Source of the DNA: Nitrosarchaeum sp.
GTDB taxonomy: Archaea; Thermoproteota; Nitrososphaeria; Nitrososphaerales; Nitrosopumilaceae
NCBI GenBank assembly: GCA_965223865.1
Contig: OZ245020.1
Coordinates: 1,408,001-1,472,000 of the forward strand
DNA: 64,000 nt
Direction of reading: 5' to 3'
The notes under the pieces were generated by a model, which was not told the DNA's origin, did no database searches, and was given only the letters and a program-made list of their open reading frames with translations. Below, piece after piece: positions 15,683 through 51,403 of this stretch (within the stretch, counting starts at the first letter, position 1; each line of letters begins with the position of its first letter). The position numbers and the translations under genes were made by a program.

Positions 15683-15756
15683 GCCGCCCTAGCTCAGCGT
15701 GGTAGAGCATCCGACTGTTAATCGGACGGTCGTCAGTTCAAGTCTGATGGGCGGCG
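15683..15756 (+). tRNA. tRNA-Asn(GTT)
   Basis: Acceptor GCCGCCC/GGGCGGC, D-arm AGCTCAGCGTGGTAGAGC, anticodon arm TCCGA-CTGTTAA-TCGGA, T-loop GTTCAAG; no intron, no encoded CCA. Confidence 0.97.
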
Positions 15757-15760
15757 CTTC

Positions 15761-35329: not shown

Positions 35330-35397
35330 GCCAAGGGAAATTCAATCATTTTAGGAGGATGATTAACAAGCAGTGGCATCTGCTTTTTCCCCTTGGC
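35330..35397 (-). ncRNA. Candidate sRNA, GCCA(A)GGG-stem family, copy 1
   Basis: Closing stem plus two internal hairpins; CTAAATA 26 nt upstream; flank shared with 50910-50998. Confidence 0.55.
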
Positions 35398-35475
35398 TGA
35401 TTAGTCTTAGGCACGTTTTCAATATTTAGGGGTTCTTTTTTGTAGTAATTTTCAAATACTTGCGATCATAAGTAA

Positions 35476-35545
35476 TAGTAGCGTCTTTTCAAGGGTTAGA
35501 CGTGGCCTAACGCTAGCTAATGGCAGAACAACAACCCTTTTGACT
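35476..35545 (+). ncRNA. Candidate structured RNA (alternative folds or pseudoknot)
   Basis: TAGCGT/ACGCTA, CGTCT/AGACG, AAGGGTT/AACCCTT; GC-rich in an AT-rich context. Confidence 0.35.
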
Positions 35546-35571
35546 AGTTAAATTCCAGTTTTTCAGATTAA

Positions 35572-35850
35572 TCATATTACTTGAACACCGTTCCAGAATG
35601 CCACCATTCCTTTGATTTTTTTGGCAGCATCATTGGGTTCAGCATAATACCATGCACAATCTTTGTTAGTTTTTCCATTGACTGTTACAGAATAGTAATT
35701 TGCCATCCCTTTCCATCCACAAAATGTCGTAAGATCAGTTTTTTCAAAATATTCTGATTTTATAGAATCGATAGGAAAATAGTGATTACCTTCAACTACA
35801 ACGGTATCAGCACTTTCAGCAATTACAACCTCATTCCAAATGGCTTTCAT
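35572..35850 (-). CDS. DUF427 family protein
   Basis: A.WN..VIAES...VEGN.YFP, C.WKG.A.YY, AW.Y..P. Confidence 0.9.
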   Translation of the reverse strand: MKAIWNEVVIAESADTVVVEGNHYFPIDSIKSEYFEKTDLTTFCGWKGMANYYSVTVNGKTNKDCAWYYAEPNDAAKKIKGMVAFWNGVQVI

Positions 35851-35934
35851 AGATCATTTACCAAAAAACAATATTTAAAGAAATCCCAATCGGTTTTTTG
35901 AAAAGTCATACATTTCTTATTTTTTGATTGGAAA

Positions 35935-37368
35935 TTATTCGCCTTTCATCTCTTCGCGAGTTTTAAAGCTTGGTGTAATGCCAAGAGATTCATAGTTTCC
36001 AGAAGAGCAAGTAAAGCACATAGAATCTGTTGGCATGCCAACTGCTGCTGCAAGATTTTCTGCATCATTGTATCCTAAAAAGTCAGCTCCAATACTTTGT
36101 CGGACCATCTCAGTTAGTTCTTCATTTGTCATCTCTTTGCCATTTGAAAATGTTGCAAGTTCTTCTTGTGATGGAAAATCAATTCCAGCATAGCAAGGGA
36201 ATTTAATTGGAGGATATGTAATGACCATGCTAATTTTTCTAGCACCTGCTCTTCTTAATGCCTTAATAATTGCCTTTGAGCTTGTACCACGAACCAAACT
36301 ATCATCAATCACAACAACATGTTTGTCCTCAATAATCTCTCTAATTGGAATAATCCATCTGTTAATTTCAATTCTGTCACTCTGATGAGGTTCAATAAAA
36401 CTACGAAGTGGACCTTTCTTGCTGTAACGATCTTTGAGGAGTCCTTCATCAAATGACACTCCCAATTCTTGTGCATAACCTAGTGCTGCAGGTCTTGCAG
36501 AATCCGGAACTGGAATTACAAGATCAGCATCTTTGAGGGGGAATTTTTTGGCCAAAAATTGGCCAATTCTTTTTCTTGATATGTAGATATTAGAGCCTTC
36601 CATATTGCTTGAAGGATGTGCAAAATAGGTAAATTCAAAAGAACAATGAGCTCGTGTCTTGTCTTCAGAAAATAATTCTGTCTGCAAACCCTCTGAGCTA
36701 AGTTTAATCAGTTCACCAGGGCTGACATCTCTTTGTAGTTTTGCACCAACTGCAGAAAGTGCAGAGGATTCGGATGCTACAACATAGGTGTTATCTGATT
36801 CTTTATGTCCTAAAACCATAGGACGAAATCCTTTAGGGTCTCTAGCAGCATATACTGCATTATCATCAGAGATAAATGTAAAGCAGTAAGAACCTACCAT
36901 TTCGTTTTTCAGAATTGAAAGGGCTTTTCCCATTTGTCCTTTTTCAGATATTAATGAAACCAATCTTTGGGCTGCAACAAGCGTATCACTTGCATTTTGG
37001 GGGGTAAATGAACATCCCCCAACCATGTTTGCCAGTTCTTGGACATTTGCAATGGTTCCATTATGTGCAACACAAAGGTCTTTTACTTTGAGGGGTTGAG
37101 CATTTTCAAGATTGCTTTTACCTATAGTAGAATATCTCACATGTCCAATGACTGCAGAGGAGGCATAATCTTCGGAGATTTTTTTAAATTCAGAAGATGA
37201 TGCAGAAACAAGGCCAAGTTTTTTGAGAGGAGGTTTGTTTGGAATTGCAAGGCCCCATGCTTCTTGACCTCTATGTTGAAGCGCTCGTAATGCATCAATT
37301 ACCATCGGAACAACATTTGTTCCACTAAGACTGAAAATTCCAACAACACCACAATTTTCCTTAACCAT
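35935..37368 (-). CDS. purF: Amidophosphoribosyltransferase
   Basis: CGVVG, LQHRGQE, GHVRYST, HNG, VDDS-type PRPP motif IDDSLVRGT. Confidence 0.97.
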   Translation of the reverse strand: MVKENCGVVGIFSLSGTNVVPMVIDALRALQHRGQEAWGLAIPNKPPLKKLGLVSASSSEFKKISEDYASSAVIGHVRYSTIGKSNLENAQPLKVKDLCVAHNGTIANVQELANMVGGCSFTPQNASDTLVAAQRLVSLISEKGQMGKALSILKNEMVGSYCFTFISDDNAVYAARDPKGFRPMVLGHKESDNTYVVASESSALSAVGAKLQRDVSPGELIKLSSEGLQTELFSEDKTRAHCSFEFTYFAHPSSNMEGSNIYISRKRIGQFLAKKFPLKDADLVIPVPDSARPAALGYAQELGVSFDEGLLKDRYSKKGPLRSFIEPHQSDRIEINRWIIPIREIIEDKHVVVIDDSLVRGTSSKAIIKALRRAGARKISMVITYPPIKFPCYAGIDFPSQEELATFSNGKEMTNEELTEMVRQSIGADFLGYNDAENLAAAVGMPTDSMCFTCSSGNYESLGITPSFKTREEMKGE

Positions 37369-39523
37369 GAACTACCAACTCCCTCAACGAATTAATCCAT
37401 GTTTTTTGTGCCTTATCAACTCTTAGATCTATGATATTCTCTGAGTTCTTACTAAATGAGATATTCTTTCCACCAAACTTACCTATCGGATTAAAAGACA
37501 CGTTGTCTTTTTTTAGAATTTCTTTTAGTTTATCTAGATGATTTTTTTCTAAAACTAAAAGATATCTAGAGTGACTCTCAGAAAACAAAACTCTATCCAC
37601 ATCGAGTTTTGGTCCTGGAACATTTTCCAATAAAACATCACAGCCAATTTGGCTAGTCATGCAAAGCTCAGATACGGCAACTGCCAACCCTCCTTTAGAG
37701 CAATCATGAACATTTTTGAGAATTCCTTTTTTGATTATTTGTAAAACTGTATTCATATTCTTTTTTGATTCACTAAAATCAACAACTGGGCATTTTCCAC
37801 CAATAAACTTGTGGATATACTCAAAGTATTCAGAACCACCCATCTCATCTTTGGTATTTCCAATAATCACTAGAACGTCACCTTCAGAAATTTTTTGAGG
37901 AATTTGGGGTTTTTTTGTTAAACCCAAAACTCCAATTAGAGGAGTTGGTTTTATTGGACCTGAAGGGGTTTCGTTGTAAAGGCTTACCTTTCCACCAATG
38001 CATGGAATTTTGAAGTATTTTGCAAAGTCAGTCAATCCCTTGAGAGATTCTAAAAATGTCCAAAAGATTTCAGGGTCTTGTGGATTCCCAAATTGAAGAT
38101 GATCAAGCATTCCTATTGGTTTAGCTCCCGTACAGACAACATTTCTACATGCTTCCTCAAAACATCCTATTGCACCCTCTCGAGGGTTAAGAAAACAATG
38201 TTTTGGATTGCCGTCAATTTTTGCAGATAGAAATTTACCATTATCTAATCTCAAAACGGCTGAATCATTTCCAGGTTTTACTACAGTTCGAATTCCTACC
38301 TCATGATCATATTGTCCATAGACCCAGATTTTACTTGCAATATTTGGAGAAGCCAAAAATTTCATCATAATTTTAGAATAATTTGAAATTGGCTTGAGCT
38401 TTGTTTCTTTTTCTATAGTTTCAAGATATGCCGGTTTTTTTGAAGGTCTGTCTAATAGATCAGCGTTTGCAACAACATCTGTTGGAAGAGCAGCGTAAGT
38501 TTTTTTGCCTTTTTTTACATGCATTATACTATTTGATGTTACTGTACCAATAACTGAACAAACAATTCTGAATTTCTTGCATATTTCTTGAAGTTTTTTT
38601 AGTTTGGTCTTGTTTGTAACAATAAGCATTCTTTCTTGAGATTCAGATATCATAATTTCCTCTGGATGCATTCCAGGTTCTCGCGTATGCACCTTATCAA
38701 CATCCATTTCGATGCCAACAGATAACGCATCTGCAGTTTCAGAAACTGCACAAGATAATCCACCTCCTCCAAGATCTTTCATGGCATTTATGAGATTATG
38801 ATTTCTTGCCTCTAAAATTGCCTCTATGATTAATTTTTCAATAAAAGGATCAGGTATTTGAACAGCAGATCTATCCTCTGACTCTAAAGAGTCAGAGGCA
38901 AATTGTGAACCACCAATTCCATCCCTTCCTGTTGAACCACCAATTAAAACTACAAGATCACCCTTGTTAGCATGGTTTTTTATCAAATTTTCTTTTTTAC
39001 CAAATCCTATTGATGCAACATCAACAAGAGCATAGTTTGTATAGCATTTATCAAACTCTACTTCACCACCTATTGTTGGGATACCTAAACAATTTCCATA
39101 ATCTGCAATTCCAGTAACAGCATTTTTGAAGAGCCATCTTGCCTGTTGATCTTTTTCAATATCCCCAAATCTCAAGCCATCAAATAATGCAATAGGTCGG
39201 GTCCCGGCAGATAAGATATCACGAATTACTCCTCCAACACCTGTTGCAGCCCCACCATACGGTTCTACTGCAGAGGGGTGATTATGACTTTCAATGTGTG
39301 CAGTTACGACATAACCATCCCCGACGTCTAAGACACCTGAATCATATCCTTTTTCAGATATTACCAAAGGTCCTTTCATAGGTAGCATTTTGAGGTGCTT
39401 CTTTGATGATTTGTATGAGCAGTGTTCAGACCATTCAGCTGCTACAATGTGTAACTCTGTTGATGTAGGTTTTCGTCCAATCTTTGATGTAAGATCTTCG
39501 AGTTCTTGTCGCTCTAAACTCAA
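37361..39523 (-). CDS. purL: FGAM synthase subunit PurL
   Basis: WSEHCSYK, ESHNHPS, GAATGVGG, SESQERM. Confidence 0.97.
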   Translation of the reverse strand: MSLERQELEDLTSKIGRKPTSTELHIVAAEWSEHCSYKSSKKHLKMLPMKGPLVISEKGYDSGVLDVGDGYVVTAHIESHNHPSAVEPYGGAATGVGGVIRDILSAGTRPIALFDGLRFGDIEKDQQARWLFKNAVTGIADYGNCLGIPTIGGEVEFDKCYTNYALVDVASIGFGKKENLIKNHANKGDLVVLIGGSTGRDGIGGSQFASDSLESEDRSAVQIPDPFIEKLIIEAILEARNHNLINAMKDLGGGGLSCAVSETADALSVGIEMDVDKVHTREPGMHPEEIMISESQERMLIVTNKTKLKKLQEICKKFRIVCSVIGTVTSNSIMHVKKGKKTYAALPTDVVANADLLDRPSKKPAYLETIEKETKLKPISNYSKIMMKFLASPNIASKIWVYGQYDHEVGIRTVVKPGNDSAVLRLDNGKFLSAKIDGNPKHCFLNPREGAIGCFEEACRNVVCTGAKPIGMLDHLQFGNPQDPEIFWTFLESLKGLTDFAKYFKIPCIGGKVSLYNETPSGPIKPTPLIGVLGLTKKPQIPQKISEGDVLVIIGNTKDEMGGSEYFEYIHKFIGGKCPVVDFSESKKNMNTVLQIIKKGILKNVHDCSKGGLAVAVSELCMTSQIGCDVLLENVPGPKLDVDRVLFSESHSRYLLVLEKNHLDKLKEILKKDNVSFNPIGKFGGKNISFSKNSENIIDLRVDKAQKTWINSLRELVVHG

Positions 39524-40200
39524 TTTTCAACACCAATAGTGCTTAGAAGAGATTTAAAAATTAGAGAAGATGGTTTGTTATCAATTGGATTGATTTCTGA
39601 TTCTACTGCTCTTTCGGGATGAGGCATCATTCCAACTATGTTATAATCTTCATTACATACACCTGCAATATTATACGAAGATCCATTTACCACCTCAGCA
39701 TATCTAAAAACAATTTGATTGTTTTTCTTTATCTTTTCAAGGACAGATTCATCAACATAATATCTCCCCTCTCCATTTGCAATGGGAATTGGAATTTTTT
39801 GACCTAAAGTAAATTGATTTGTAAAAGGAGTTTTGTTATTTTCTACTATCAAATTCGTCCATTCACACATAAAATTAAGTGATGTATTTTTGAGCAAAAC
39901 TCCAGGCAGCAATCCTGCCTCTACAAGAATTTGAAATCCATTACATACACCCAAAATAGGAATGCCTTTTTCTGCTAATTTTTTTACGTCTTTAATAACA
40001 GGACTATGTGCGGCAATGACACCTGCTCTTAATCTATCACCATAAGAAAATCCTCCAGGTAAAATTATCGCATCAATATTTTTTGGCAGACCTTTTTCAT
40101 GCCAAAAATATTGAGTATTCAAATTAAAGACATCTGTTAAAACATGATACATGTCTCGATCACAGTTACTGCCAGGAAAAACAACGACTCCAATCTTCAC
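39520..40200 (-). CDS. purQ: FGAM synthase glutaminase subunit PurQ
   Basis: FPGSNCD, PGGFSYGD, GVCNGFQ, MPHPER. Confidence 0.97.
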   Translation of the reverse strand: MKIGVVVFPGSNCDRDMYHVLTDVFNLNTQYFWHEKGLPKNIDAIILPGGFSYGDRLRAGVIAAHSPVIKDVKKLAEKGIPILGVCNGFQILVEAGLLPGVLLKNTSLNFMCEWTNLIVENNKTPFTNQFTLGQKIPIPIANGEGRYYVDESVLEKIKKNNQIVFRYAEVVNGSSYNIAGVCNEDYNIVGMMPHPERAVESEINPIDNKPSSLIFKSLLSTIGVEN

Positions 40201-40275
40201 ATTTGTTTTTACTCAAGGAGATATTTAATTTGAATCCAGCCAAATGAATTTATGTGAAGAATTCCCTTGATCGCC

Positions 40276-40698
40276 ATGGCACATATACGTGACATTATGG
40301 AAAAAAATGTTGTAACAATAGAACATGAAAAAAATGCACTTGATGCTGCCAAATTACTAAAAGAAAAAGAGATCAGTTTTTTGGTCATAATTAAGGATAA
40401 TAGTCCAATAGGAATTGTTTCGGAGAGAGATTTTGTAAAAAAAGTTGTTGCAGAAGATAAGGTAGCATCAACAATGTCCCTTGAAAGCATAATGTCAAAA
40501 AAATTTAGATGGGTACAGCCAGATAGTAAAATTGAAGATGCGGTACAAAAAATGCTAAACAATAACATTCGAAGATTACTAGTTTTAGAAAAGGAGAAAC
40601 TTGTTGGAGTGATTACTCAAACGGATCTTACCAGCTTTCTCAGAAGTAAACTGCTGATTAATGGAACAATTGAGAATATAGAAGAAGAAAATTCTTAG
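40276..40698 (+). CDS. CBS-pair protein
   Basis: GIVSERD, GVITQTD. Confidence 0.9.
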   Translation: MAHIRDIMEKNVVTIEHEKNALDAAKLLKEKEISFLVIIKDNSPIGIVSERDFVKKVVAEDKVASTMSLESIMSKKFRWVQPDSKIEDAVQKMLNNNIRRLLVLEKEKLVGVITQTDLTSFLRSKLLINGTIENIEEENS

Positions 40699-40955
40699 AC
40701 CTCAAAAACATCTATTGTTACCTTGCTGACCATAGGATTGTAAATCCTCAATTCATCACAAATTTCCTGAACCCTTTGTTTAGCTGTTTTGATACTTTTT
40801 TCCTTTATAGTAAACTTTAGCATTTTAGCAGTTTTGATTTTTGATATTGTAGAATTGGTACCTTTCAAAACAAGGTCATTTAGAATTGTGTCTCCTTCTG
40901 GATCACTAATTCCGGGTTTGTTTTCAATAATTACATGAACATCATAGGTAGCCAT
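40695..40955 (-). CDS. purS: FGAM synthase subunit PurS
   Basis: K.GI.DPEG..I, NP; near purQL. Confidence 0.9.
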   Translation of the reverse strand: MATYDVHVIIENKPGISDPEGDTILNDLVLKGTNSTISKIKTAKMLKFTIKEKSIKTAKQRVQEICDELRIYNPMVSKVTIDVFEV

Positions 40956-41036
40956 GAGTATTTTTGAAATTCAAAGTGAGGTTAATCTATCTTCCGACCA
41001 GAATTGTGCTTTTATACTAAAAATAAAAAAGAAATC

Positions 41037-41096
41037 AGATACCCGATTCTGAGGACTTGTGTTGTTGTTAGGCAAATAACCCAGAATCGGTTATCT
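41037..41096 (+). ncRNA. Candidate hairpin sRNA or 3' hairpin
   Basis: AGATA-C-CCGATTCTG ... CAGAATCGG-T-TATCT; TTTATA at 41011. Confidence 0.35.
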
Positions 41097-41488
41097 TAAT
41101 CATTTTTAGTTTTGAAATTATTTTTGACATATTCTGTGTACTTTCTGTAAAGTCCAGATTCATAATTAGGATTCTGAGTTATTAGAGATTTTTTAATCAA
41201 GTCTTCTTTTGAATGAAGCATGTTTTTTTCAAAAATGCCCTTATTGTCTAATACAATACAAAGGTCTTGCCAAAGTGATACTTCATTTGGATTTCTATTT
41301 GCAGTAGCATAGTAAACATAAAGTAATCTTAATTTATTGTATTCATCAAGATTCAAATCTTTTCCAAGAAGATACTTTCTTCGTAATTTCTGAAAAAATA
41401 TCAATCCCTCTTTTGTCAGAACATAATCAAATAGTTTAGGATAGTCATCAATGTCTATTGGGTGTAATGGATTTTGAGAAACCAACAC
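41096..41488 (-). CDS. Hypothetical protein
   Basis: 130-aa ORF. Confidence 0.7.
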   Translation of the reverse strand: MLVSQNPLHPIDIDDYPKLFDYVLTKEGLIFFQKLRRKYLLGKDLNLDEYNKLRLLYVYYATANRNPNEVSLWQDLCIVLDNKGIFEKNMLHSKEDLIKKSLITQNPNYESGLYRKYTEYVKNNFKTKND

Positions 41489-41744
41489 TCTAGATTATTT
41501 TTATCTAGTTTTTTATTTTATGATTTGAATTTTGTATTTTCATTAGAAATAAAATTCAACGTATGAAAAGATGATGGATAGAAAGGGACGGCTATATCTA
41601 CATGAAGATATATTTTTTCATATTTGTTTAATCTAGGGAACAGAAAATATAAGTTATTGAATTTCAGATGAGATTTAGCCTTAAAAGAGAACAAAGTCAC
41701 CCTAAACATTGGAATTTATATCTCATTTATACTGTAATTAATCA

Positions 41745-42209
41745 TTGGCAAGATCAAGGTATTGGAAAATAACACCAGATGAGATGGATAAGTTTTCCTA
41801 CAAAGAGGATAAATTACTCAACTGGGAAATCAAGTGTGTAAGAGAACCTGAATCTGAGGCCATGTTTATCGGTGTTTTCCAGTATAGAGGAGGCACACCG
41901 TATGACTATGAATCCATTAAAGGGATTACATATTATCACAACAATATATCTAGGAAGGAATTACCCTCAATTACTAAATTTCTTCAAGATAAATTCAATG
42001 GAAAAGAAATGGAAAAAGGAGAGCGCATATTCCTTAAAGACTCAAAAGAAATCTATTCCCCAAAAGATTTGGCAAATTTAGCAAGAGATTTGGAGCAGAA
42101 ATTTAGCACAAAGGCCATCATATCGCTAGAATTTGGAGATATAAATCAAGAAGAACTAAAAGAGTCTGGCCTGCCTGAAGCAAAACTATTACCAATTCCC
42201 GGCAAATAG
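41745..42209 (+). CDS. Hypothetical protein
   Basis: 154-aa ORF upstream of tatC. Confidence 0.75.
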   Translation: MARSRYWKITPDEMDKFSYKEDKLLNWEIKCVREPESEAMFIGVFQYRGGTPYDYESIKGITYYHNNISRKELPSITKFLQDKFNGKEMEKGERIFLKDSKEIYSPKDLANLARDLEQKFSTKAIISLEFGDINQEELKESGLPEAKLLPIPGK

Positions 42210-42237
42210 ATAAGGTAGTTTACGATATAGAATTCAG

Positions 42238-43029
42238 ATGTCAGAGATTCAAGAAATCAATCATCATCTAAATGAATTAAGGAAGAGAGTTTTACGAATT
42301 GTTTTAGCAATAGGGATAATCACAGTATTTCTTTTAACATTTCATGCAGAACCTTTCCAAATTAATGGTGTTGTGTTTTATTATCCAACTCCAGAACCAT
42401 TAGACAACATTGCAGCGCAAATTACAAACCACATGAAAGATAATCTTGTTCCTGAAGACGTACAATTAATTCAAACTGCACCAGGTCAAGCATTTTTTGC
42501 TCAAGTATACATTGCAGCACTTGTAGGTATTGTTGTCAGCATGCCAGTTATCATTAAAGAATTAGTAGGATTCATCAAGCCAGCATTAAAAGAAAATGAA
42601 ATCAATGTTAGTAGAACCATTTCTTTGCCTGCGTTAGGCTTGTTCATAGCAGGATGTGTATTTTCATATAATCTGGTAATTCCATACCTCTTGGAATTTC
42701 TTTACAGATATGGAGAATCTGCAGGATTAGTAACATTTCTTAATGTCATTGATTTTGTAACATTTGTATTACAATTTTTGTTGGCCTTTGGATTATCATT
42801 TCAACTTCCACTTGTAATGTATGCAATTACTGGTGCAGGGATGACAGATACTGACTTTTGGCGAAAGAATATCAGATATGCAATTATTGCAATTGTGATC
42901 TTCGGAGCTGTAATCACACCGGATGGTAGCGGTGTTACAATGTGGTTTATTGCTGGCCCCATGATTGCATTATATGTTGCAGGCATGACAATAATTGAGC
43001 GTCAAAAGAACAAAAAATTGAACACTTAA
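42238..43029 (+). CDS. tatC: Twin-arginine translocase TatC
   Basis: HL.ELRKR, P.L..NE, FGLSFQLP, ITPD. Confidence 0.93.
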   Translation: MSEIQEINHHLNELRKRVLRIVLAIGIITVFLLTFHAEPFQINGVVFYYPTPEPLDNIAAQITNHMKDNLVPEDVQLIQTAPGQAFFAQVYIAALVGIVVSMPVIIKELVGFIKPALKENEINVSRTISLPALGLFIAGCVFSYNLVIPYLLEFLYRYGESAGLVTFLNVIDFVTFVLQFLLAFGLSFQLPLVMYAITGAGMTDTDFWRKNIRYAIIAIVIFGAVITPDGSGVTMWFIAGPMIALYVAGMTIIERQKNKKLNT

Positions 43030-43056
43030 ATCTAAAATAGGTCAATACAAAGTAGA

Positions 43057-43263
43057 ATGTTTGGAATGAATATTGCCAATTTTATTGCAGGTCAAGAGTG
43101 GATTTTCATAATAATTATTGCAGTGGTATTCATTTTTGGAGCAAAGAAGATTCCAGAATTAGCAAAAACTTTCGGTAAAGCTAAAGGCGAATTTGAGAAA
43201 GGAAAGATCGAAGGTGAAAAAGAACTAAAAGACTTTAAAGATAAGGAAGTAAAATCAGACTAG
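43057..43263 (+). CDS. tatA: Twin-arginine translocase TatA
   Basis: FGAKKIPELAK..G.A..EF. Confidence 0.93.
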   Translation: MFGMNIANFIAGQEWIFIIIIAVVFIFGAKKIPELAKTFGKAKGEFEKGKIEGEKELKDFKDKEVKSD

Positions 43264-43688
43264 ATTTCTGCAACTTTTACAAATTCATCGACAATTTTAG
43301 AATAATTATTTTCAATCTTATTTTTTCCTAGCAGATTTGAAATTTTCATGTTTCCCTTTAGTTTAAAATCAACTTCCACTAGCATTTTTGTTCCAGTAGG
43401 AATTTGCTCGAATTTCTCTACAATATGAGTTCCTTTGGCATGTCCTCCAATTACAAAAATCTCATGTAAATGAGGTTCCTGAATTACATGCTTTGTCATC
43501 ATTACTAATTCTTTATTTCCTAGAACCATATGCTCTTCAACCACCGATACATCATTTCTTGTAGAAAGAATTCTTACTGAGGGGAAGTACTGAGGAAGTA
43601 ATTTCTGATATTTTTCATAATCTTTTACAATATCAAAAAATTTTTGTCTTGGAGAATTTACTAATTTTTCAAAACTAAATCTAGGCAA
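43260..43688 (-). CDS. SRPBCC/START (polyketide cyclase-like) protein
   Basis: P...F.IV.DYE.Y...LP. Confidence 0.8.
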   Translation of the reverse strand: MPRFSFEKLVNSPRQKFFDIVKDYEKYQKLLPQYFPSVRILSTRNDVSVVEEHMVLGNKELVMMTKHVIQEPHLHEIFVIGGHAKGTHIVEKFEQIPTGTKMLVEVDFKLKGNMKISNLLGKNKIENNYSKIVDEFVKVAEI

Positions 43689-43691
43689 TAA

Positions 43692-44249
43692 TTAGAAAGT
43701 GCCCCAACGTGGGTATAAATTGTGCTCCAAATCAAATTGATCAAGGCACTTTCCTACACCGTGGTTTATAATATCATCAATTGATTTGGGTTTTGTATAA
43801 AATTCTGTAACAGGCGGTAATATTACAACACCGATTCTTGATAACTTTAACATATTTTCAAGATGAATTGCAGAAAAAGGTGTTTCTCGTACCATTAAAA
43901 TTAATTTTCTATTTTCTTTTATCGTAACACCTGCAGCTCTTGCAACAAGTGTATCATCATAACCATTAGCGATTGCAGAAAGTGTTTTCATACTGCATGG
44001 TGCAACAATCATCCCATCAACTTTGTGAGTACCACTTGACACACTTGATGCCATATTTCTTTCATCAGAAATGCTTGTTGCAAGTGACTTTACATAATCA
44101 ATTGTATGATCAGTTTCCATATCAACACATTTTGATCCCCAGTTAGACATTACAAGATGGGTTTCAACATTTAATTTTTTTAAAACCTCAAGCAGTCTAA
44201 TCCCATAAATAACACCAGTACTGCCTGTAATTCCAACAATCAGTCTCAC
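43692..44249 (-). CDS. ubiX: Flavin prenyltransferase
   Basis: GITGSTG..YG, SSG, APCSMKTL, RAA.V..KE.R, RETP. Confidence 0.93.
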   Translation of the reverse strand: MRLIVGITGSTGVIYGIRLLEVLKKLNVETHLVMSNWGSKCVDMETDHTIDYVKSLATSISDERNMASSVSSGTHKVDGMIVAPCSMKTLSAIANGYDDTLVARAAGVTIKENRKLILMVRETPFSAIHLENMLKLSRIGVVILPPVTEFYTKPKSIDDIINHGVGKCLDQFDLEHNLYPRWGTF

Positions 44250-44313
44250 AAATAAACTCAAGAGTCAATGGTATTTTATCTATTTGACAGAGGTTCTAAT
44301 TTGGCACTAGTGT

Positions 44314-44457
44314 TTACAGATTGGTAGGCTCATCTTTTTGTGCCTTATCAAATTCTTGGCGGTCTTTTCGTCTTTTGAGCCATAATGAAAAACCTCCAAT
44401 TGCCATAGCAGTTAACAAGATAACACCTGCCATTTGCAATTCAAAATAGTACAGCAT
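44314..44457 (-). CDS. 47-aa single-TM microprotein (not in ORF track)
   Basis: MLYYFELQMAGVILLTAMAIGGFSLWLKRRKD... Confidence 0.55.
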   Translation of the reverse strand: MLYYFELQMAGVILLTAMAIGGFSLWLKRRKDRQEFDKAQKDEPTNL

Positions 44458-44553
44458 AGAAACTACATGATTTCTTTTAAAAAAAATCTTTGGGTAAATG
44501 CCGATCCAATTTTTAAAAATTAGCTATATTAGATCCTAGTTTCTAGCCAGTAT

Positions 44554-45645
44554 GTGATAAAGAGTTCTGAGATCAAAAAAATTGTTAATGATTATTCAGA
44601 TGTGAGAATAGGAGTACTTGGAAGTCATTCAGCACTTGAGGTTATGGATGGTGCAAAAGAAGAGAATTTTCAGACTACTGTTTATTGTCAAAAGGGAAGA
44701 GAAGGACCATATCAAAGATTTGGAAGGATAGCTGATGAGATTGTTGTATTAAATAAATTCAAAGAAATGACATCTCCAAAAATTCAAAAGAAACTTAGAG
44801 ATTCTAATACAATTGTAGTTCCACATAGATCGCTTACAGTTTATCTAGGATACAAAGCACTTGAAAATTCATTTAAAGTACCAATTTTTGGAAATAGAAA
44901 ATTATTTCAAGCCGAAGAAAGAACAGCAAAACGTAATCAATATTATCTCCTTGAAAAGGCTCGAATAAAATTTCCAAAATTATTCAAAGACCCAAAAAAT
45001 ATCAATAAACCGTGCATTGTAAAAGTTCAAGAAAAAAACAGACCGCTTGAGAGAGCATTTTTTACAGTATCCTCATTTAAAGATTATAAAGAAAAATCAG
45101 AGTCCAAAATTAAACAAGGTCTCATTTCAAGAAAAGACCTAGAAAAAGCAAGTATAGAAGAATTAGCAATTGGAACATACATGAATTTTAATTTCTTTCA
45201 CACACCAATTTCAGATCATGTTGATTTTATTGGAATAGAAAGACGACTTCAAACAAATGTTCATGATTATAATGCCCTTCCAGCCAGGCAACAGATGGAT
45301 ATTGATATTGATTTACAAAATATAGAGGTAGGACATACTCCTGCAAGTATTAGAGAGTCTTTGTTAGAAAGGGTCTTCAAGATGGGAGACAAATTTGTTG
45401 CCGCAGTAAAAAAAGAATATGCACCGGGAATTATAGGACCTTTTTCACTTCAAAGTGTAATAACAAAAGATTTGGAGTTGGTGGTATATGATGTATCCTT
45501 GAGAGTTCCTGGAAACCCAATAGTTGCCACTACTAGTCCATATACAAAATACCAATACGGAACAACATTTGGAGTGGGTAGAAGAATTGCAATGGAAATC
45601 AAACGTGCAGAAGATGAAGAACGTTTAGATGAGATTGTTACCTAA
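44554..45645 (+). CDS. purP: Formate-dependent AICAR transformylase (PurP family, ATP-grasp)
   Basis: GSHSAL, PIFGNR, GH.P.SIRESLL, PG.IGPF.LQ, GRRIA.EI. Confidence 0.9.
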   Translation: MIKSSEIKKIVNDYSDVRIGVLGSHSALEVMDGAKEENFQTTVYCQKGREGPYQRFGRIADEIVVLNKFKEMTSPKIQKKLRDSNTIVVPHRSLTVYLGYKALENSFKVPIFGNRKLFQAEERTAKRNQYYLLEKARIKFPKLFKDPKNINKPCIVKVQEKNRPLERAFFTVSSFKDYKEKSESKIKQGLISRKDLEKASIEELAIGTYMNFNFFHTPISDHVDFIGIERRLQTNVHDYNALPARQQMDIDIDLQNIEVGHTPASIRESLLERVFKMGDKFVAAVKKEYAPGIIGPFSLQSVITKDLELVVYDVSLRVPGNPIVATTSPYTKYQYGTTFGVGRRIAMEIKRAEDEERLDEIVT

Positions 45646-45827
45646 CCAAAAAAACATTTTTATCAAATCTTGATTTAGAATTTTGTTAATTGGCTAGATT
45701 AGGAAATATAAAGAATACCTAACGTTTTGTTTCAAATAATTAAACGGTTTGATGTTTGAAATGGAATTGCTGTATGCCAATTAACAAATATGCAAACTCT
45801 TTTTTGGATTAATTTTTTATCTCTTTC

Positions 45828-46088
45828 ATGTCAAGAACAGTATTCATTCGTGAAATTATTTTAGCGCCTAAAGAACCAAAACTATGTCCCAATTGTGAAA
45901 AGTATGATAGATTAGAAAAAGATATTGTTTTTGAAAGAAGATCAGATGGAAAAACCATTATTTGCACAAGATGTGAGGCTTTGATGGTCATAACAAACCA
46001 GAATCTAAAAAAAGTAGAGTTAGAAGGGTCAAGAGATTATTCAATTATGCTAAAAGAACCACATCTGATTCGAAAAATAACGTATTAG
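45828..46088 (+). CDS. Small zinc-ribbon protein
   Basis: CPNC...CTRC. Confidence 0.7.
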   Translation: MSRTVFIREIILAPKEPKLCPNCEKYDRLEKDIVFERRSDGKTIICTRCEALMVITNQNLKKVELEGSRDYSIMLKEPHLIRKITY

Positions 46089-46435
46089 TTTAATCCTTCA
46101 ATAGGATAATTCTAATTAGGGTAATTTCGGTCTTCAGATTTGTACTAGTTCTTCTTACATGTTTGTTGTTTAGCAAAATGAGATTTCTGAATAATTTGAT
46201 ATGCCGTATTTTGGTACATATGATTTAATTTTACTATAAAATGCCAAGATCACAGGATAAAAGTTAGGTTAGAAAAATTATTGAATTTGGAAACTCAATA
46301 TATCACAAGATGTAATCATAATTGCTGATGATTAATCAAAAAGCTATGTCTGAGGGTTGATGAGTTTGCCGAATTATGAAGCATTATAAAATTAATATTG
46401 AAAAAATCTACATATTAGAAAAATCTAATTTTAAT

Positions 46436-46999
46436 ATGAAGTGTGTTGAAGACAAGATTCTAAATGCAAAAAAATTTGCACGTGAAAAGCACAAAAATCA
46501 AACAAAAAGAGATGGAAGTACTTCATTAATTGATCATTTGGAAGGAGTAGTATTCAGACTAAAGAATTTAGGAATAATAGATACGGATGTAATTTCAGCT
46601 GCATGGCTTCATGACATACTTGAAAAAACAGATGTGACTTTGGATGAAATTATTCAAAGATTTGGAAGAGAAACATCCACAATGGTACTTTCACTTTCAA
46701 AGAACCATAATCTGTCAAGAAAAGAAAGAGAAAATCAATACATCAAACAATTACGAGGTGCAACAATAGAGGCAAAAATTATCAAATTATGCGACATATC
46801 ATCTAATATCAAAGATTTACCAAATGCACCTTTATCAAAAACACAAAAAAATAAAAAAATTCGAAGAGTTTTGTACTACCTAAGAGTAATTAAAAATGAT
46901 ATATCTGAAGAAAAAGAAAATTATCCTAGAATTCAAGAAATTGTAGATGGTATAAATTCAGTAGCAATAAAATTCAAACAACAACCAATTTCAATTTAA
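46436..46999 (+). CDS. HD-domain protein, Mesh1/SpoT hydrolase-like
   Basis: FA...H..Q..R.G, H...V, AA.LHD..E.T, IKL.D...N. Confidence 0.8.
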   Translation: MKCVEDKILNAKKFAREKHKNQTKRDGSTSLIDHLEGVVFRLKNLGIIDTDVISAAWLHDILEKTDVTLDEIIQRFGRETSTMVLSLSKNHNLSRKERENQYIKQLRGATIEAKIIKLCDISSNIKDLPNAPLSKTQKNKKIRRVLYYLRVIKNDISEEKENYPRIQEIVDGINSVAIKFKQQPISI

Positions 47000-47120
47000 T
47001 ATAATAATTAAATTCTTTTCTTAGAATTTCAGTATAAGGTATGTATGTTATATAATAAATTACAGAGAGCAATTTTTTTAAATATAAAAATAATACAATC
47101 TTGAAATAATCAATATTATC

Positions 47121-47330
47121 ATGAGCAAACTTCCAGAAAGATTTCCAGAATATTCTATAATGTATAAAATTTTAACAAAAAAAATTAAGGATTTAGAATT
47201 AAAAATAAAATCTGGTTCTTCAGAAGAAAGTATAGACATGCAAAGAAAAATTAAAAATTTTAAACAAGAAAGACAAAAAATTAAAGAAATGTTTCCTGAA
47301 AATTTTTTTGAAAATTTAGAATCTAAATAA
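47121..47330 (+). CDS. Small coiled-coil protein (paralog of 52912-53136)
   Basis: Y..L.K.IK.LE...I..MFP. Confidence 0.65.
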   Translation: MSKLPERFPEYSIMYKILTKKIKDLELKIKSGSSEESIDMQRKIKNFKQERQKIKEMFPENFFENLESK

Positions 47331-47341
47331 GAAATTAATTA

Positions 47342-47560
47342 TTAGTTATGTTGATGGTCATGACCACAATCGCATTGATGCTGGTGATCACCAAATGACA
47401 TTAATTTTTCTACCATTTCATCACGAATTTTAAGTAAATCCCCAACTTGTTGTTTTAGTGTTCCTGAATCCCAATTTCCCTCATGTAAAGCCCTTACAGC
47501 GTCAATGATTTCAAGATCTACATTGAGTAGATTATCCATGAGTTGTTCTTGTTCATTCAT
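47342..47560 (-). CDS. Small protein with His/Cys-rich tail
   Basis: C-terminal HQHQCDCGHDHQHN. Confidence 0.75.
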   Translation of the reverse strand: MNEQEQLMDNLLNVDLEIIDAVRALHEGNWDSGTLKQQVGDLLKIRDEMVEKLMSFGDHQHQCDCGHDHQHN

Positions 47561-47608
47561 AATAATTTACAAATAAACTGTGAAAAAAACCATTCTAATC
47601 AGAGTAAA

Positions 47609-48034
47609 TCATGCTTCCATACTTTCTTTTAAGAGATTTTTCCTAACAAGAATTGGGATTTTGTAAAAGGCACCTAGTGCCATAGCATCTGATGCGCGAT
47701 AATTGCGTAAAACCATGTCTTTTTTTCCAGTAAAATACAAATTAGCCCTTAAGACTTCACCACTTTCGTAAATTTTGACTTTAACTAAGACCAATTCGTT
47801 TTCTTCACAGATCTCTTCTATCATTTTGTAAATAGAAGGAACTGAATCATTTGCTTTCTCACTAAAACTGGAAATATGACGCGCAACCTCCCCAGAGAAT
47901 GCTCTCATGTGAAACTCTTTTCCATCAGCAGATTTGAGAACAACCATACCTTCAACCGCATAAGGATCAACAAACCCCACATAATCGATTTTTACCGATT
48001 CATAATCAGGCTCTTGTGCTTGATCAATTTCCAT
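47609..48034 (-). CDS. Bifunctional nuclease / DUF151 family protein
   Basis: R.SDA.AL......PI.V. Confidence 0.75.
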   Translation of the reverse strand: MEIDQAQEPDYESVKIDYVGFVDPYAVEGMVVLKSADGKEFHMRAFSGEVARHISSFSEKANDSVPSIYKMIEEICEENELVLVKVKIYESGEVLRANLYFTGKKDMVLRNYRASDAMALGAFYKIPILVRKNLLKESMEA

Positions 48035-48174
48035 TGTTTCTACGCATAAACTAACCATTTAGTGCTTATAAAGATACTAAAATAATGCGATTCAGAGTAT
48101 GTTAATTTCTTTATAATTATCTAGATTAATGCTTAACCCCAAATTATTTAAAATCAACAATAAAGGATAGCTTA

Positions 48175-49989
48175 ATGTCAACAAATCCAGAACGATCAGT
48201 ATCATATGTTCTGACAAAATATGTCACAGCTTACATGAACAAAGATGTTCTTTTACTTCATGAGAACACGCTAACAAGAGAAGCTGCTAGAATGCTTAGA
48301 CATTATGAAATAGATGACATCATTGTAACTGATAGTAATAATTTACCTGTTGGAATTGTTACAGATGAAGATATTCTGAGCCAAGTTAGCGATGCTACAG
48401 TTTACGCTGAAGCTACAGCTTTGAAGGACATTATGAACACACCTCTAATTACAATTAATGAAAAAGCCACGCTGCAAGAAGCACTTCACAAAATGAGAGA
48501 TCATAACATTAGAAAACTTCCAGTCATTTCTAAAAAAAATGAGGTATTAGGAATAATTTTTCAAACAACAATTGCAGATGTCATCAGAGATGCAACTGCC
48601 ACACCGTCAAGACTACTTAGTCCTCCAGTAAAAGCTGTTCTTGGGAACTTGGGGTTTGTTTTACAGTTTGCAGGAGTTTTACTACTTGTACCAGCAATTT
48701 TATCCACAGTATTAGGAGAGACAGTCACAGCTACCGGAATTTATCTTACAACAGTTCTTTTGCTTGTAACTGGATTTTTTCTAAATTCTTATGGAGAAAA
48801 GGCAAATCTAAATCTTCAGCAAGCATCGATTCTTGTATTTTCAAGTTTGTTCCTACTATCATTATTTGGGACGGTTCCATATCTATACGTGACTACGGAA
48901 GATTCAACAAATATCGAAGTATTTGCAAATGCATTCTTTTCTAGTGCTGCAGGATTTACAACTGGTGGAATTTCAATATTTGATGAACCAGAAAATCTAC
49001 CTCAGAGTTTCACTTTCTATCGTAGTTTCACTCAGCTTGTAGGAGGAATGAGTTTCATCTACTTGGTAATTACCGCGTTTTATCCAGAATCGAAGCTTCA
49101 ATCCATGCGCGGTTTTATTTCAGGAAGAACGCTGCATATGAGAGAGCTCTTTGGAACTATTACGATAATTTTTACTCTTTATGTTGTGATTGTTGCGTTG
49201 TTATTGTATTTCTTTGGTGAAACGAATTTGATTGATAATTTTTCTTTAGCTATGAGCACACTTGCCACTGGCGGATTCCTACCAAATTCAATAATTCTTG
49301 ATAATTTGGTATGGCAAGAGCATATTATTTTGATGGCAGCAATGATACTAGGAGCATTACCTTTTACATTTCACTATGCATTTGTAAGAAAGAAATTCCT
49401 TGCCCCCAAATTAGGAAAAGAGGTACTAACATATTTTGCAATACTTGGTAGTGCCACCCTATTGTTTATGTGGATAAGTGGATTAGATCCTTTGTTAAGT
49501 TCATTTTATTCAGTATCAGCTAGCACCACAGCAGGATTACAGCTAGAGAGTCTTGAAGGATTAAATTCAGCAGCACATTCAATACTGATCATTTTGATGT
49601 TTATAGGAGGATGTGGGTTCTCAACTGCTGGAGGTTTTAAAATCTTTAGATTATTACAGTTAAAAGATCTTAGAAAGTTTTTGAACAAGGTAAAACGTGC
49701 CGAATTGCAACCACACGCCAGAAAGGAGTTAACATCTACTTTGATAATAATTGCATTATTTCCAATAATTGCGTCTGTTACTGCAGTTCATTTAGCTGCA
49801 ATAGAAAATACATCATATGAGAATGCATTTTTTGAATCAGTAGGAGTAATTACAACTGGAGGACTATCAGCAGATGTAATTGATTTTGAGACGGATCCTG
49901 CAACAAAAATCGTACTAAGTTTTCTTATGATCTTTGGAAGACTGGAGATCATAGCAATCATATACATTTTCATTCCTAAATTGAGTTAG
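48175..49989 (+). CDS. trkH: CBS-pair fused TrkH-type K+ transporter
   Basis: N-terminal CBS pair; four pore motifs FTTGG, LATGG, STTAG, ITTGG; FIGG...ST.GG.K; FGRLE. Confidence 0.88.
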   Translation: MSTNPERSVSYVLTKYVTAYMNKDVLLLHENTLTREAARMLRHYEIDDIIVTDSNNLPVGIVTDEDILSQVSDATVYAEATALKDIMNTPLITINEKATLQEALHKMRDHNIRKLPVISKKNEVLGIIFQTTIADVIRDATATPSRLLSPPVKAVLGNLGFVLQFAGVLLLVPAILSTVLGETVTATGIYLTTVLLLVTGFFLNSYGEKANLNLQQASILVFSSLFLLSLFGTVPYLYVTTEDSTNIEVFANAFFSSAAGFTTGGISIFDEPENLPQSFTFYRSFTQLVGGMSFIYLVITAFYPESKLQSMRGFISGRTLHMRELFGTITIIFTLYVVIVALLLYFFGETNLIDNFSLAMSTLATGGFLPNSIILDNLVWQEHIILMAAMILGALPFTFHYAFVRKKFLAPKLGKEVLTYFAILGSATLLFMWISGLDPLLSSFYSVSASTTAGLQLESLEGLNSAAHSILIILMFIGGCGFSTAGGFKIFRLLQLKDLRKFLNKVKRAELQPHARKELTSTLIIIALFPIIASVTAVHLAAIENTSYENAFFESVGVITTGGLSADVIDFETDPATKIVLSFLMIFGRLEIIAIIYIFIPKLS

Positions 49990-50042
49990 AATGGTTTTGA
50001 AGGTAAAAATATAATTTAATTTAATTAGTTTTTAGAAAAAAC

Positions 50043-50870
50043 ATGGAGAAACAGACGACCAAAAGTGGTCAGAATGGTAAAAAATTAATCATTTTAGGAT
50101 TTGTAACCATTGCCATACTCTTTGTAATGTATTCCCGCTATCAAGATCCAGAACTCCTTACTCCTGGTGCGATTGACTCTATCCAAAGATTAGCAAATGG
50201 ATTTTACATTATCATGCTAGCATCTTTAGGATCTATAACCTATGGAATCTATCTTTTTCACAAATACAAAGTTGAGAAAAATGGTAAAGACTTACTAACG
50301 ATTATTGCATTAACCACATGGAACTCAAAATCAAGAAAGATTTTTGTTATAACTTTTGTAGGATATGGGATTTTTTTCTCATTAGCATCTGGAACTCTAG
50401 TTTATCAGCCCGAGGTGAATTTCATCGAACATTATGGGGCAACAATACCATCAGGATTTATTGCTCCCTGTTGTGATGAGCCAGGATACATGCCAAAAAT
50501 AATCGTATATCTAACAGAACATGTAGGATTACAAATAATTCCAATTAATTTGATTCTACAAGTTATTGTATCGTATTTGGTGGGCCTTAATACTTCAATT
50601 GCAATCAGTGCATATACAATTTCAAAAAAGGGAAGAGGGATGAGTACATTAGGTGCTGCCACAGGACTCTTCATAGCATGCCCCACATGTGCCGGAACAT
50701 TTCTATCAATTTTCATAGGTACTGCCAGTGGAATCGCCTTATCAATTGCACTTACTCAACTACAGACATTTTTCATTGCAATATCAATTCCAGTATTGAT
50801 AGCAACACCGTTTATCATGGGGGGAAAATTAAGAAATGCAGATGGAAGCTGTAAAATTAAACCTAATTAG
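50043..50870 (+). CDS. Multi-TM protein with CC and CPTC motifs
   Basis: About 6 TM segments; APCC, IACPTCAG. Confidence 0.75.
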   Translation: MEKQTTKSGQNGKKLIILGFVTIAILFVMYSRYQDPELLTPGAIDSIQRLANGFYIIMLASLGSITYGIYLFHKYKVEKNGKDLLTIIALTTWNSKSRKIFVITFVGYGIFFSLASGTLVYQPEVNFIEHYGATIPSGFIAPCCDEPGYMPKIIVYLTEHVGLQIIPINLILQVIVSYLVGLNTSIAISAYTISKKGRGMSTLGAATGLFIACPTCAGTFLSIFIGTASGIALSIALTQLQTFFIAISIPVLIATPFIMGGKLRNADGSCKIKPN

Positions 50871-50909
50871 AAGCAGCAATTATGTTTTCAAAGTCCATAA
50901 AAAATAATT

Positions 50910-50998
50910 GCCAGGGAAGAGTGGTATTGAATGATTTACAACAAGATAGAGTATTTGGTCGCATGAAAATGAAGCTATCCTCTTGTAACTCCCCTGGC
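50910..50998 (-). ncRNA. Candidate sRNA, GCCA(A)GGG-stem family, copy 2
   Basis: Closing stem GCCAGGG/CCCTGGC, inner stem TTACAAGAGGATAG/CTATCTTGTTGTAA; CTAAATA 26 nt upstream. Confidence 0.55.
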
Positions 50999-51403
50999 TG
51001 ATCAATGTTAGACACGTTTTTAGTATTTAGAGATTCTTATTTTAATTCTCAAAATCTGTATTTTAAAAACGCTGCAGGTTATGAACGAATTATTCGTGTT
51101 GGTTATATGTAAAAATACAATAACAGAATCATGCAATAATGCATTTGTTTATCGTTTAACTGACCATATTTTCTACGATAATGCTTCATCTGTTTCCACA
51201 AGAGTCATTTTTGGCACCATTGCATTTTTTGATTTAAAGTTGGACAAGGGTAAGGCAGATACATTAACCATCAGATGAATATTCAGAAACAACACTAGTA
51301 GATTTTGCATTATGAAGCTGATTTAAGGAAATTTTTGATTATCAAGTGTGAAATGAACTGAAAATAGAGTAACTCTTAACTAGTTTTACGATCTATAATA
51401 CAA

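Follow-up and report, generated by a model that had tools for sequence, protein, structure and literature searches.

Two short stretches of DNA lying 15.6 kb apart in a 64,000-nt region of a Nitrosarchaeum sp. genome (contig OZ245020.1, positions 1,408,001 to 1,472,000; hereafter the window, whose numbering is used below) resemble each other, and the question they raise is whether they are genes of one small RNA family, from which strand they would be read, and what their products would do. A prediction made from the sequence alone (the original prediction) had proposed a family of RNAs of about 70-90 nt, with a shared promoter, a closing stem and a variable interior acting as guide or decoy. 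We conclude that each of the two loci is an independent minus-strand gene of a common small noncoding RNA (ncRNA) family, and that this is very probably a real, structured and previously undescribed family. The first gene (copy 1) occupies 35330..35397 and the second (copy 2) 50910..50998, both on the minus strand.

Two related genes and their strand

The cores of copy 1 and copy 2 are identical at 36 of 45 nt and differ at nine positions, in agreement with the 36 of 44 nt reported originally. These are the only two such sites in the 2.01-Mb genome when both strands are searched with up to 12 substitutions allowed; BLAST of the genome with copy 1 had missed copy 2, and this fuzzy substitution search was used instead. 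A pattern consisting of the promoter and the two stem arms matched twice in the window, against 0.00 matches expected from 100 shuffles. The likeness extends upstream, to about 75 nt in all, so that the shared stretch was real but had been delimited too narrowly. The interiors had been described as unrelated yet both folding; both do fold, but they are not wholly unrelated, as each contains CUUGUU(G)UAAAUCAU and an AUGC(GA)CCA loop. Copies 1 and 2 are therefore distant paralogs throughout.

On the minus strand, a TATA-like box stands 24 nt ahead of the stem in each copy: CTAAATAT at 35422..35429 in copy 1 and CTAAATAC at 51023..51030 in copy 2, the latter identified both by direct reading and by pattern match. 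From TAAATA to the stem the distance is 25 nt in both copies, which bears out the minus-strand TATA box proposed earlier, and the spacing from box to stem is 23-26 nt in all 26 members found. The box is preceded by an A-rich stretch on the same strand, AAAAAAGAACCC at 35430..35441 in copy 1 and AAATAAGAATCT at 51031..51042 in copy 2, where it was recognised as resembling a B recognition element (BRE) by direct reading and alignment. In an alignment of eight copies, the BRE-like part, AAAGAA, is common to most.

Between box and stem lies a conserved spacer, TGAAAACGTGCCTAAGACTAATCA (35398..35421, minus strand) in copy 1 and TAAAAACGTGTCTAACATTGATCA (50999..51022, minus strand) in copy 2, where the match to the family promoter pattern has 0 mismatches. 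The spacer consensus across lineages, RAAAAYRTRYCTAACANTRATYA, contains a small GTGT-CTA-ACAC palindrome and TGATCA, and the 32-bp promoter made up of TATA box and spacer includes GTGTCTAACA and TGATCA. Over 276 pairwise comparisons the 36 nt upstream of the stem are 78% identical on average, and the interiors 57%. The conserved spacer may be an operator. In the same genome, transfer RNA (tRNA) genes have TATA-like boxes whose positions are about -36 to -26 relative to the mature 5′ end; by analogy with this geometry, transcription would start a few bases before the stem, in the last few bases of the spacer. Further upstream, the TATA box is preceded at a distance of 13-17 nt by another motif, GTATTTGARAATTA, in copy 1 (35447-35460), copy 2 (51047-51060) and a metagenome member (L054). 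This motif also forms the 3′ end of a conserved element at 35438-35575 described below; it may be an upstream activator site.

The strand is decided by the closing stem, which is present in all 26 members found. When stem pairs were counted from the termini inwards, without an alignment, 24 members gave 218 Watson-Crick pairs, 30 G·U pairs and 0 A·C pairs, a count in which each 3′ end was picked for the longest stem and which thus favours pairing. On the plus strand, each of the 30 wobbles would become an A·C mismatch, and the minus strand is therefore fixed, as a bias of G-U pairs had first suggested. Whole-molecule minimum free energy was better as minus-strand RNA in 16 of 24 members and in both copies of the window, at -27.5 kcal/mol (z -5.0) against -24.6 (z -3.0) on the plus strand for copy 1 and -29.9 kcal/mol (z -4.4) against -23.6 (z -2.05) for copy 2.

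Substitutions within the stem preserve pairing. Pair 2 occurs as C-G, U·G or U-A, and pair 5 as G-C, G·U or A-U. A block of A-U pairs comprises none, one or two pairs: the gain or loss of one such pair on both arms together, noted originally between copies 1 and 2, is confirmed by their arms, GCCAAGGGGAA/UUUCCCUUGGC and GCCAGGGGAG/CUCUUCCCUGGC, respectively, and a relative supplies a third state, GCCAAAGGG/CCCUUUGGC.

Interior subtypes, covariation and distribution

A loose promoter-plus-arms pattern scan yielded 256 loci, with at least 119 metagenome, at least 118 genome-contig and 19 viral-contig stretches. An nhmmer profile of the promoter and 5′ arm then gave 28 hits in 27 of the 256 loci at E ≤ 5.6e-9, the next best hit having an E value of 0.014. 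Of the matches listed, 17 of the 119 from metagenomes, 10 of the 118 from genome contigs and none of the 19 viral ones were among the 27 loci, and the genome-contig members all lay in Nitrosarchaeum or Nitrosopumilus contigs. At least 26 distinct RNAs were recognised, of which at least 15 belong to type 1, the type of copy 1 (61-72 nt), at least 10 to type 2, the type of copy 2 (70-89 nt), and one to neither; two copies added from one genome (G385), one of type 1 and one with a diverged promoter and a new interior, are included. The latter is the member outside both types (L255, G385 contig 1:1610120-1610810), whose interior is unlike types 1 and 2 and whose closing stem is a good 10 bp (GUCAGGGAAG/CUUCUCUGGC). 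The family envisaged in the original prediction thus acquired homologs and a covariance model, with members of 61-89 nt.

The freely variable interior did not hold up: the interiors form discrete, internally conserved subtypes, marked by an invariant CAUC[CU]U[CU] hairpin in type 1 and by a conserved long hairpin in type 2, with one member of a third type. At the DNA level, all 15 type-1 members found carry CATC[CT]T[CT], and 13 of the 15 carry CATCCTC. The CAUCCUC motif is kept though its pairing partner changes (AAUCAU/AUGAUU in some, CAUCC/GGAUG in others). Overall, the interiors contain 14.5% G and 24.9% C, compared with 17% each in the genome.

Covariation, which had been proposed as a check on the family, was found in both main types. 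For type 1, in an alignment fitted to the first covariance model, 93.8% of cells were paired compared with 83.5±1.2 in shuffles, and 16 of 25 pairs were changed on both sides compared with 6.5±1.7, a count not equalled in any of 500 shuffles; the covariation score was 0.225 against 0.117 (0 of 500 shuffles as high), and slid partners scored at most 0.055. For type 2, a plain MAFFT alignment of 10 members with an RNAalifold consensus of 19 pairs had 96.8% of cells paired, and 6 of the 19 pairs were changed on both sides compared with 1.1±1.0, again with 0 of 500 shuffles as high. Two MAFFT alignments (A5 and A7) that placed the 5′ arm wrongly were excluded from the counting.

Copy 1 encodes a predicted RNA of 68 nt, running from GCC to GGC and folding as a three-way junction of an 11-bp closing stem and two hairpins. 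The 5′ arm of the stem, GCCAAGGGGAA (35387..35397, minus strand), pairs with the 3′ arm, UUUCCCUUGGC (35330..35340, minus strand), as seen both in the fold and in the stem pair counts. Hairpin 1 (35368..35385, minus strand), formed by the AGCAGA/UGCUUG region with the loop AUGCCA, is the variable part of type 1; in the model-fitted alignment, 6 of its 6 pairs are changed on both sides, with many gaps and only 81% of cells paired. Hairpin 2 (35342..35366, minus strand) is an 8-bp hairpin of UUAAUCAU and AUGAUUGA that carries the family motif CAUCCUC, and 95% of cells in its helix are paired in the same alignment. Two hairpins, one of them with a CCUCC loop, had been predicted here, and CCUCCUAAA is indeed exposed in the loop of hairpin 2. 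The motif of copy 1, AAUCAUCCUCCU, resembles the 3′ end of the 16S ribosomal RNA (rRNA) of this genome, GAUCACCUCCU, except for one inserted U; most members read CCUCUC at that motif, and the mimicry of the 16S 3′ end is therefore loose.

The 89-nt RNA predicted for copy 2 combines a closing stem of 10 bp with a long hairpin and, towards the 3′ end, a single-stranded segment poor in G. The long imperfect hairpin (50941..50985, minus strand) has the stem ACAAG(A)GGAUAG / CUAUCUUGU and a loop end ..GCGACCAAAUA. An imperfect stem of 14 positions had been described here; the long imperfect hairpin does exist, but the part kept across relatives is a 9-bp stem, ACAAGAUAG/CUAUCUUGU. The unpaired 3′ segment, AAAUCAUUCAAUACCA (50920..50935, minus strand), contains no G in copy 2 and is variable among type-2 members.

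The family is restricted to some Nitrosarchaeum and Nitrosopumilus lineages. Of the six other genomes available for the genus, BLAST showed copies in two: G006 carries syntenic orthologs of both genes, a third type-2 copy and a tandem pair made up of a type-1 gene and, 8 nt beyond it, a type-2 gene with its promoter, whereas a single copy was found in G003. The first covariance model, made from four sequences and used with strict filters, found the family in 3 of 151 genomes of the taxonomic family and missed the Nitrosopumilus members. A stricter 32-nt promoter pattern with at most 3 mismatches was applied to 401 genomes of the taxonomic family, with a reversed-pattern control that gave 8 hits. 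Eight of the 401 genomes matched, six of them with 0-2 mismatches, namely the present genome (G000), G003 and G006 of Nitrosarchaeum and G356, G385 and G391 of Nitrosopumilus. The other two matches had 3 mismatches and no closing stem, which is the level of the reversed control, and were not counted as members. In Nitrosarchaeum the family is therefore present in 3 of 7 genomes, and in Nitrosopumilus in 3 of the 99 sampled; the same pattern gave no member in the other 25 genera covered. Copy number ranges from 1 to at least 5 per genome.

One further locus of G006 (L294, G006:C1:66366-69397) has a copy of the family promoter with 1 mismatch (67866-67897, minus strand) followed by G/U-rich sequence, with no closing stem and no open reading frame (ORF) for about 560 nt beyond the promoter; this locus may represent either another type of RNA or a copy in decay. 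This locus and those of members L018 (G006:C1:159077-162184), L305, L298 and L022 lie in stretches poor in long ORFs, and the 3.1 kb around the G006 tandem pair contain one ORF of at least 80 aa. Such stretches might hold further small genes.

Known RNA classes and genomic setting

The two loci matched neither tRNA, box C/D or H/ACA RNA nor any Rfam 15 family. ARAGORN found one tRNA in the window (tRNA-Asn, 15683-15757) and none at either locus, and an Rfam 15 scan at gathering scores returned only that tRNA. In a permissive Rfam scan, the best score at one locus was 14.7 bits (gathering 44, E 2.2), and the lowest E value at the other was 0.67, from a 10.6-bit match (gathering 315). Archaeal C/D RNAs have a C box (RUGAUGA) near the 5′ end, a D box (CUGA) near the 3′ end, a kink-turn (K-turn) and internal C′/D′ boxes, and in archaeal H/ACA RNAs an ACA box follows a hairpin that holds a pseudouridylation pocket. 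By direct reading and Rfam, no C/D signature was found: the ends are GCCA(A)GGGG and CCC(U)UGGC, and neither RNA contains UGAUGA. An ACA box is likewise absent at both loci, the 3′ arms being followed by CUUAAAU and AAUUAUU, and neither RNA has a K-turn signature. Complementarity to the rRNA operon was at the level of chance in an ungapped scan, with longest runs of 11 and 12 nt compared with 10-15 and 11-16 in shuffles. The original view that these are neither tRNA nor canonical C/D or H/ACA RNAs is borne out, and in the Rfam scan that had been proposed no family reached its gathering threshold at either locus. The RNAs are similar to the C/D and H/ACA guides in size, in having constant terminal elements that frame a variable inside, and in the presence of several genes per genome, but they lack RUGAUGA/CUGA ends, an ACA box, an Rfam match and rRNA complementarity beyond that of shuffled sequence.

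Two other classes share parts of this design. Y RNAs, which are bound by Ro/Rsr proteins, have a variable interior and a long conserved stem, made by pairing of their 5′ and 3′ ends, by which the protein holds them. The end-joining stem of the present RNAs is alike, but it has no conserved bulge, and the TROVE/Ro family (PF05731) has 0 matches in this 99.98%-complete genome, in a search that hit 2 of 14 control genomes. The bacterial small RNAs (sRNAs) RsaE and RoxS pair with Shine-Dalgarno (SD) sequences through C-rich loops, and in them as in the present RNAs a pyrimidine-rich hairpin-loop motif is kept while the rest drifts; they belong to another domain of life and are not homologous, and SD-led genes are rare in the present genome.

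The resemblance to tRNA is closer in detail. Like tRNA genes, or an acceptor-T minihelix, the loci have the same promoter spacing and a terminal stem of 10-12 bp, and tRNA-Phe(GAA) of this genome (G000:C1:1228851-1228925) begins with GCCAGGG and ends with CCCUGGCA, so that the type-2 arm of copy 2 and the base that follows it equal its acceptor stem. The RNAs have no cloverleaf, and both ARAGORN and the Rfam tRNA model were negative. Because many members have other arms, the identity is probably a coincidence. An origin from tRNA-Phe was considered and rejected, as all that speaks for it is the acceptor 7-mer plus a weak resemblance to a T loop in one member, and other members have neither. 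As a separate observation, ARAGORN made 45 tRNA calls over the whole genome, with no tRNA-Trp, only one tRNA-Glu and an implausible tRNA-SeC with a 278-nt intron; intron-bearing or atypical tRNAs were probably missed by the program.

Closest orthologs keep no ORF on either strand of the two loci: the frames of 21 and 13 aa at copy 1 and of 33 and 39 aa at copy 2 have either disappeared or shifted there. The gene that faces copy 2 is convergent with it, so that copy 2 is not a 5′ leader. The 15.6 kb between the copies carry purF, purL, purQ, purS, purP-like, tatC, ubiX-like and trkH-like genes; the products of this stretch include a flavoprotein and an HD protein, and it is not an island. No integrase or transposase was found near 11 loci in five genomes, whose neighbours are unrelated housekeeping genes, and 0 of 19 viral-contig pattern matches belong to the family.

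Between the copy 1 promoter and the stop of a DUF427 gene (35572), at 35438-35575, lies a second conserved noncoding element that has no Rfam match. Paralogous elements occur on two contigs of G003 and in G006, there at 567049-567143 and some 650 nt away from another sRNA copy, and the element contains a hairpin AAGGGUU...AACCCUU, with GGGGU...ACCCC in one copy. Metatranscriptome contigs of relatives, from four runs of two studies (a single data set may underlie two of the runs), aligned at 35392-35550, 35435-35552 and 35429-35569, that is, over the upstream element and, in one run, the copy 1 promoter. No contig piece fell on 35330-35391 or 50776-51300, in assemblies that blur starts, ends and strand and easily lose short RNAs. 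In the same runs, contigs on the element at 35438-35575 were closer in sequence than contigs on neighbouring coding genes.

In the full-text literature outside subscription journals, we found no regulatory RNA family described for ammonia-oxidising archaea. The excerpts of PMC5069720 and PMC13475601 that we used mention archaeal RNase P, signal recognition particle RNAs and a euryarchaeal ncRNA, and not the present family. The nearest comparison is with sRNA154 and sRNA41 of Methanosarcina mazei, which an excerpt of PMC5867862 describes as small intergenic RNAs with stable stem-loops whose loops hold an anti-RBS sequence (RBS, ribosome-binding site) and mask the RBS of target messenger RNAs (mRNAs); sRNA154 is conserved in one genus and switched by one nutrient signal. 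As far as that excerpt allows comparison, the present RNAs are like these two in their small size, intergenic place and stem-loops, and they would expose a CCUCC/CAUCCUC motif. They have no sequence or Rfam relationship to them, are shorter, have both ends locked in a stem of 10-12 bp, and are multi-copy, with several interior types under one promoter.

A possible function and its alternatives

The arrangement suggests, tentatively, that the RNAs could be co-regulated regulators acting in trans by base pairing. Each gene would have an archaeal promoter of its own, in which a (C/A)TAAATAY TATA box stands between an A-rich, BRE-like stretch and a 24-nt spacer of unusual conservation, and transcription would begin a few bases ahead of the 10-12-bp stem that joins the RNA ends. 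This stem probably defines and protects the mature ends, and it would frame an interior in which single strands rich in C and U but poor in G are exposed: a conserved CAUCCUC(U/C)C hairpin in type 1, and the unpaired 3′ segment together with a ..GACCAAG loop in type 2. The most likely job of these strands would be pairing in trans with purine-rich mRNA sites, for instance the SD-like GGAGG or GAGG, in the manner reported in the excerpt of PMC5867862 for sRNA154 and sRNA41. The conserved spacer would place all copies under one transcription factor.

Several results weigh against this proposal. Transcription, RNA ends, regulator and base pairing are all read from the DNA, and the type-1 covariation count comes from a model-fitted alignment, which leans towards structure. 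Leaving aside the two loci themselves, the spacer at other promoters of the genome was not above control (7, 15 and 13 occurrences compared with 15, 12 and 12 for the reversed pattern), and therefore no wider regulon backs the idea of a shared regulator. Duplex scans of three exposed segments against 1,960 ORF start regions gave energies no better than those of shuffled queries, so that target prediction for the loops, proposed with the original prediction, produced nothing in its favour; a scan of the genome for exact complementary 11-mers of both RNAs likewise gave no convincing antisense target, the longest non-self match among those listed being 15 nt. SD-like 5-mers precede 142 of 1,960 ORFs, compared with 88 of 1,961 at a control position within ORFs, and with so few SD-led ORFs an anti-SD mode would have few clients. 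Of 24 members, 1 has a run of at least five T in the 40 nt that follow it, whereas 17.7% of random 44-nt windows contain such a run; no oligo-T terminator is associated with the genes, and the 3′ end would therefore need processing.

That the target scans gave nothing above chance would also be expected if the RNAs were parts of ribonucleoproteins (RNPs) or protein decoys, with the closing stem and the CAUCCUC hairpin as protein-binding sites and the molecule as scaffold, sponge or guide holder. The handle sequence is conserved across subtypes with differing interiors, the closing stem has invariants (C3-G, A4-U and a GGG/CCC block), and CAUCCUC is kept while its partner changes, all of which agree with protein binding. 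We nevertheless consider such a role rather unlikely, as no candidate partner gene adjoins any of the 11 loci, the genome has no TROVE/Ro match, and there is no K-turn, C/D or H/ACA signature; nothing in the analysis shows the protein-recognised handle of the original prediction. Processing is central to another idea, that the RNAs are relics or mimics of tRNA-like minihelices, whose stem imitates stacked acceptor and T stems and which RNase P and tRNase Z excise, so that they could serve as a processing competitor or be a selfish duplicate. The identity of the type-2 arm (GCCAGGG...CCCUGGC plus A) with the tRNA-Phe acceptor stem and discriminator, a promoter geometry equal to that of tRNA genes and the lack of a terminator, which requires ends made by processing, all suit this idea. 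It is nonetheless improbable: ARAGORN and the Rfam tRNA model returned nothing at either locus, D, anticodon and T arms are absent, many members have GUCAAGGG or GUCAGAGG arms, unlike tRNA-Phe, and the likeness to one tRNA among 45 calls is a post hoc observation.

Patchy presence (6 of 401 genomes), a copy number from 1 to at least 5, and a relative's copy with a promoter but no closing stem are what would be expected of recent neutral duplicates of a promoter-plus-palindrome module, functionless or weakly transcribed junk. This is highly improbable in view of the compensatory and G·U-only substitutions that preserve the stems in two genera and many metagenome lineages, and of promoters that remain 78% identical on average while interiors fall to 57%. 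Least credible of all is an element of the plus strand or of the DNA itself, such as a hairpin terminating plus-strand genes that lie upstream, a single-stranded-DNA recombination site or a miniature inverted-repeat transposable element. Copy 2 does lie 40 nt past the stop of a plus-strand ORF (50043-50870) and is followed on that strand by a T5 run, but the 30 G·U pairs would become A·C mismatches, plus-strand folds are weaker, no plus-strand gene lies within about 1 kb upstream of copy 1, no integrase or transposase is near the 11 loci, and 0 of 19 viral-contig matches are in the family.

A modular RNA scaffold is a further, distinctly unlikely possibility, in which a fixed cassette of promoter with operator and end-joining stem would be bound by an archaeal protein and would carry at least three interiors. 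If true, it would be a programmable handle-plus-guide RNP system, with a logic like that of C/D guides or CRISPR RNAs and unrelated to either. Taken together, the observations describe what is very probably a new family of narrow distribution, in which promoter and handle are constant and the interiors fall into discrete subtypes. Ammonia-oxidising archaea carry out a large share of marine and sediment nitrification. The patchy presence of the family in Nitrosarchaeum and Nitrosopumilus suggests an accessory trait, which may be linked to habitat. For the study of RNA in these archaea the family is an entry point with covariation support: it offers a probe for Northern blotting, a spacer with which to fish for the transcription factor and a C/U-rich motif for target capture.

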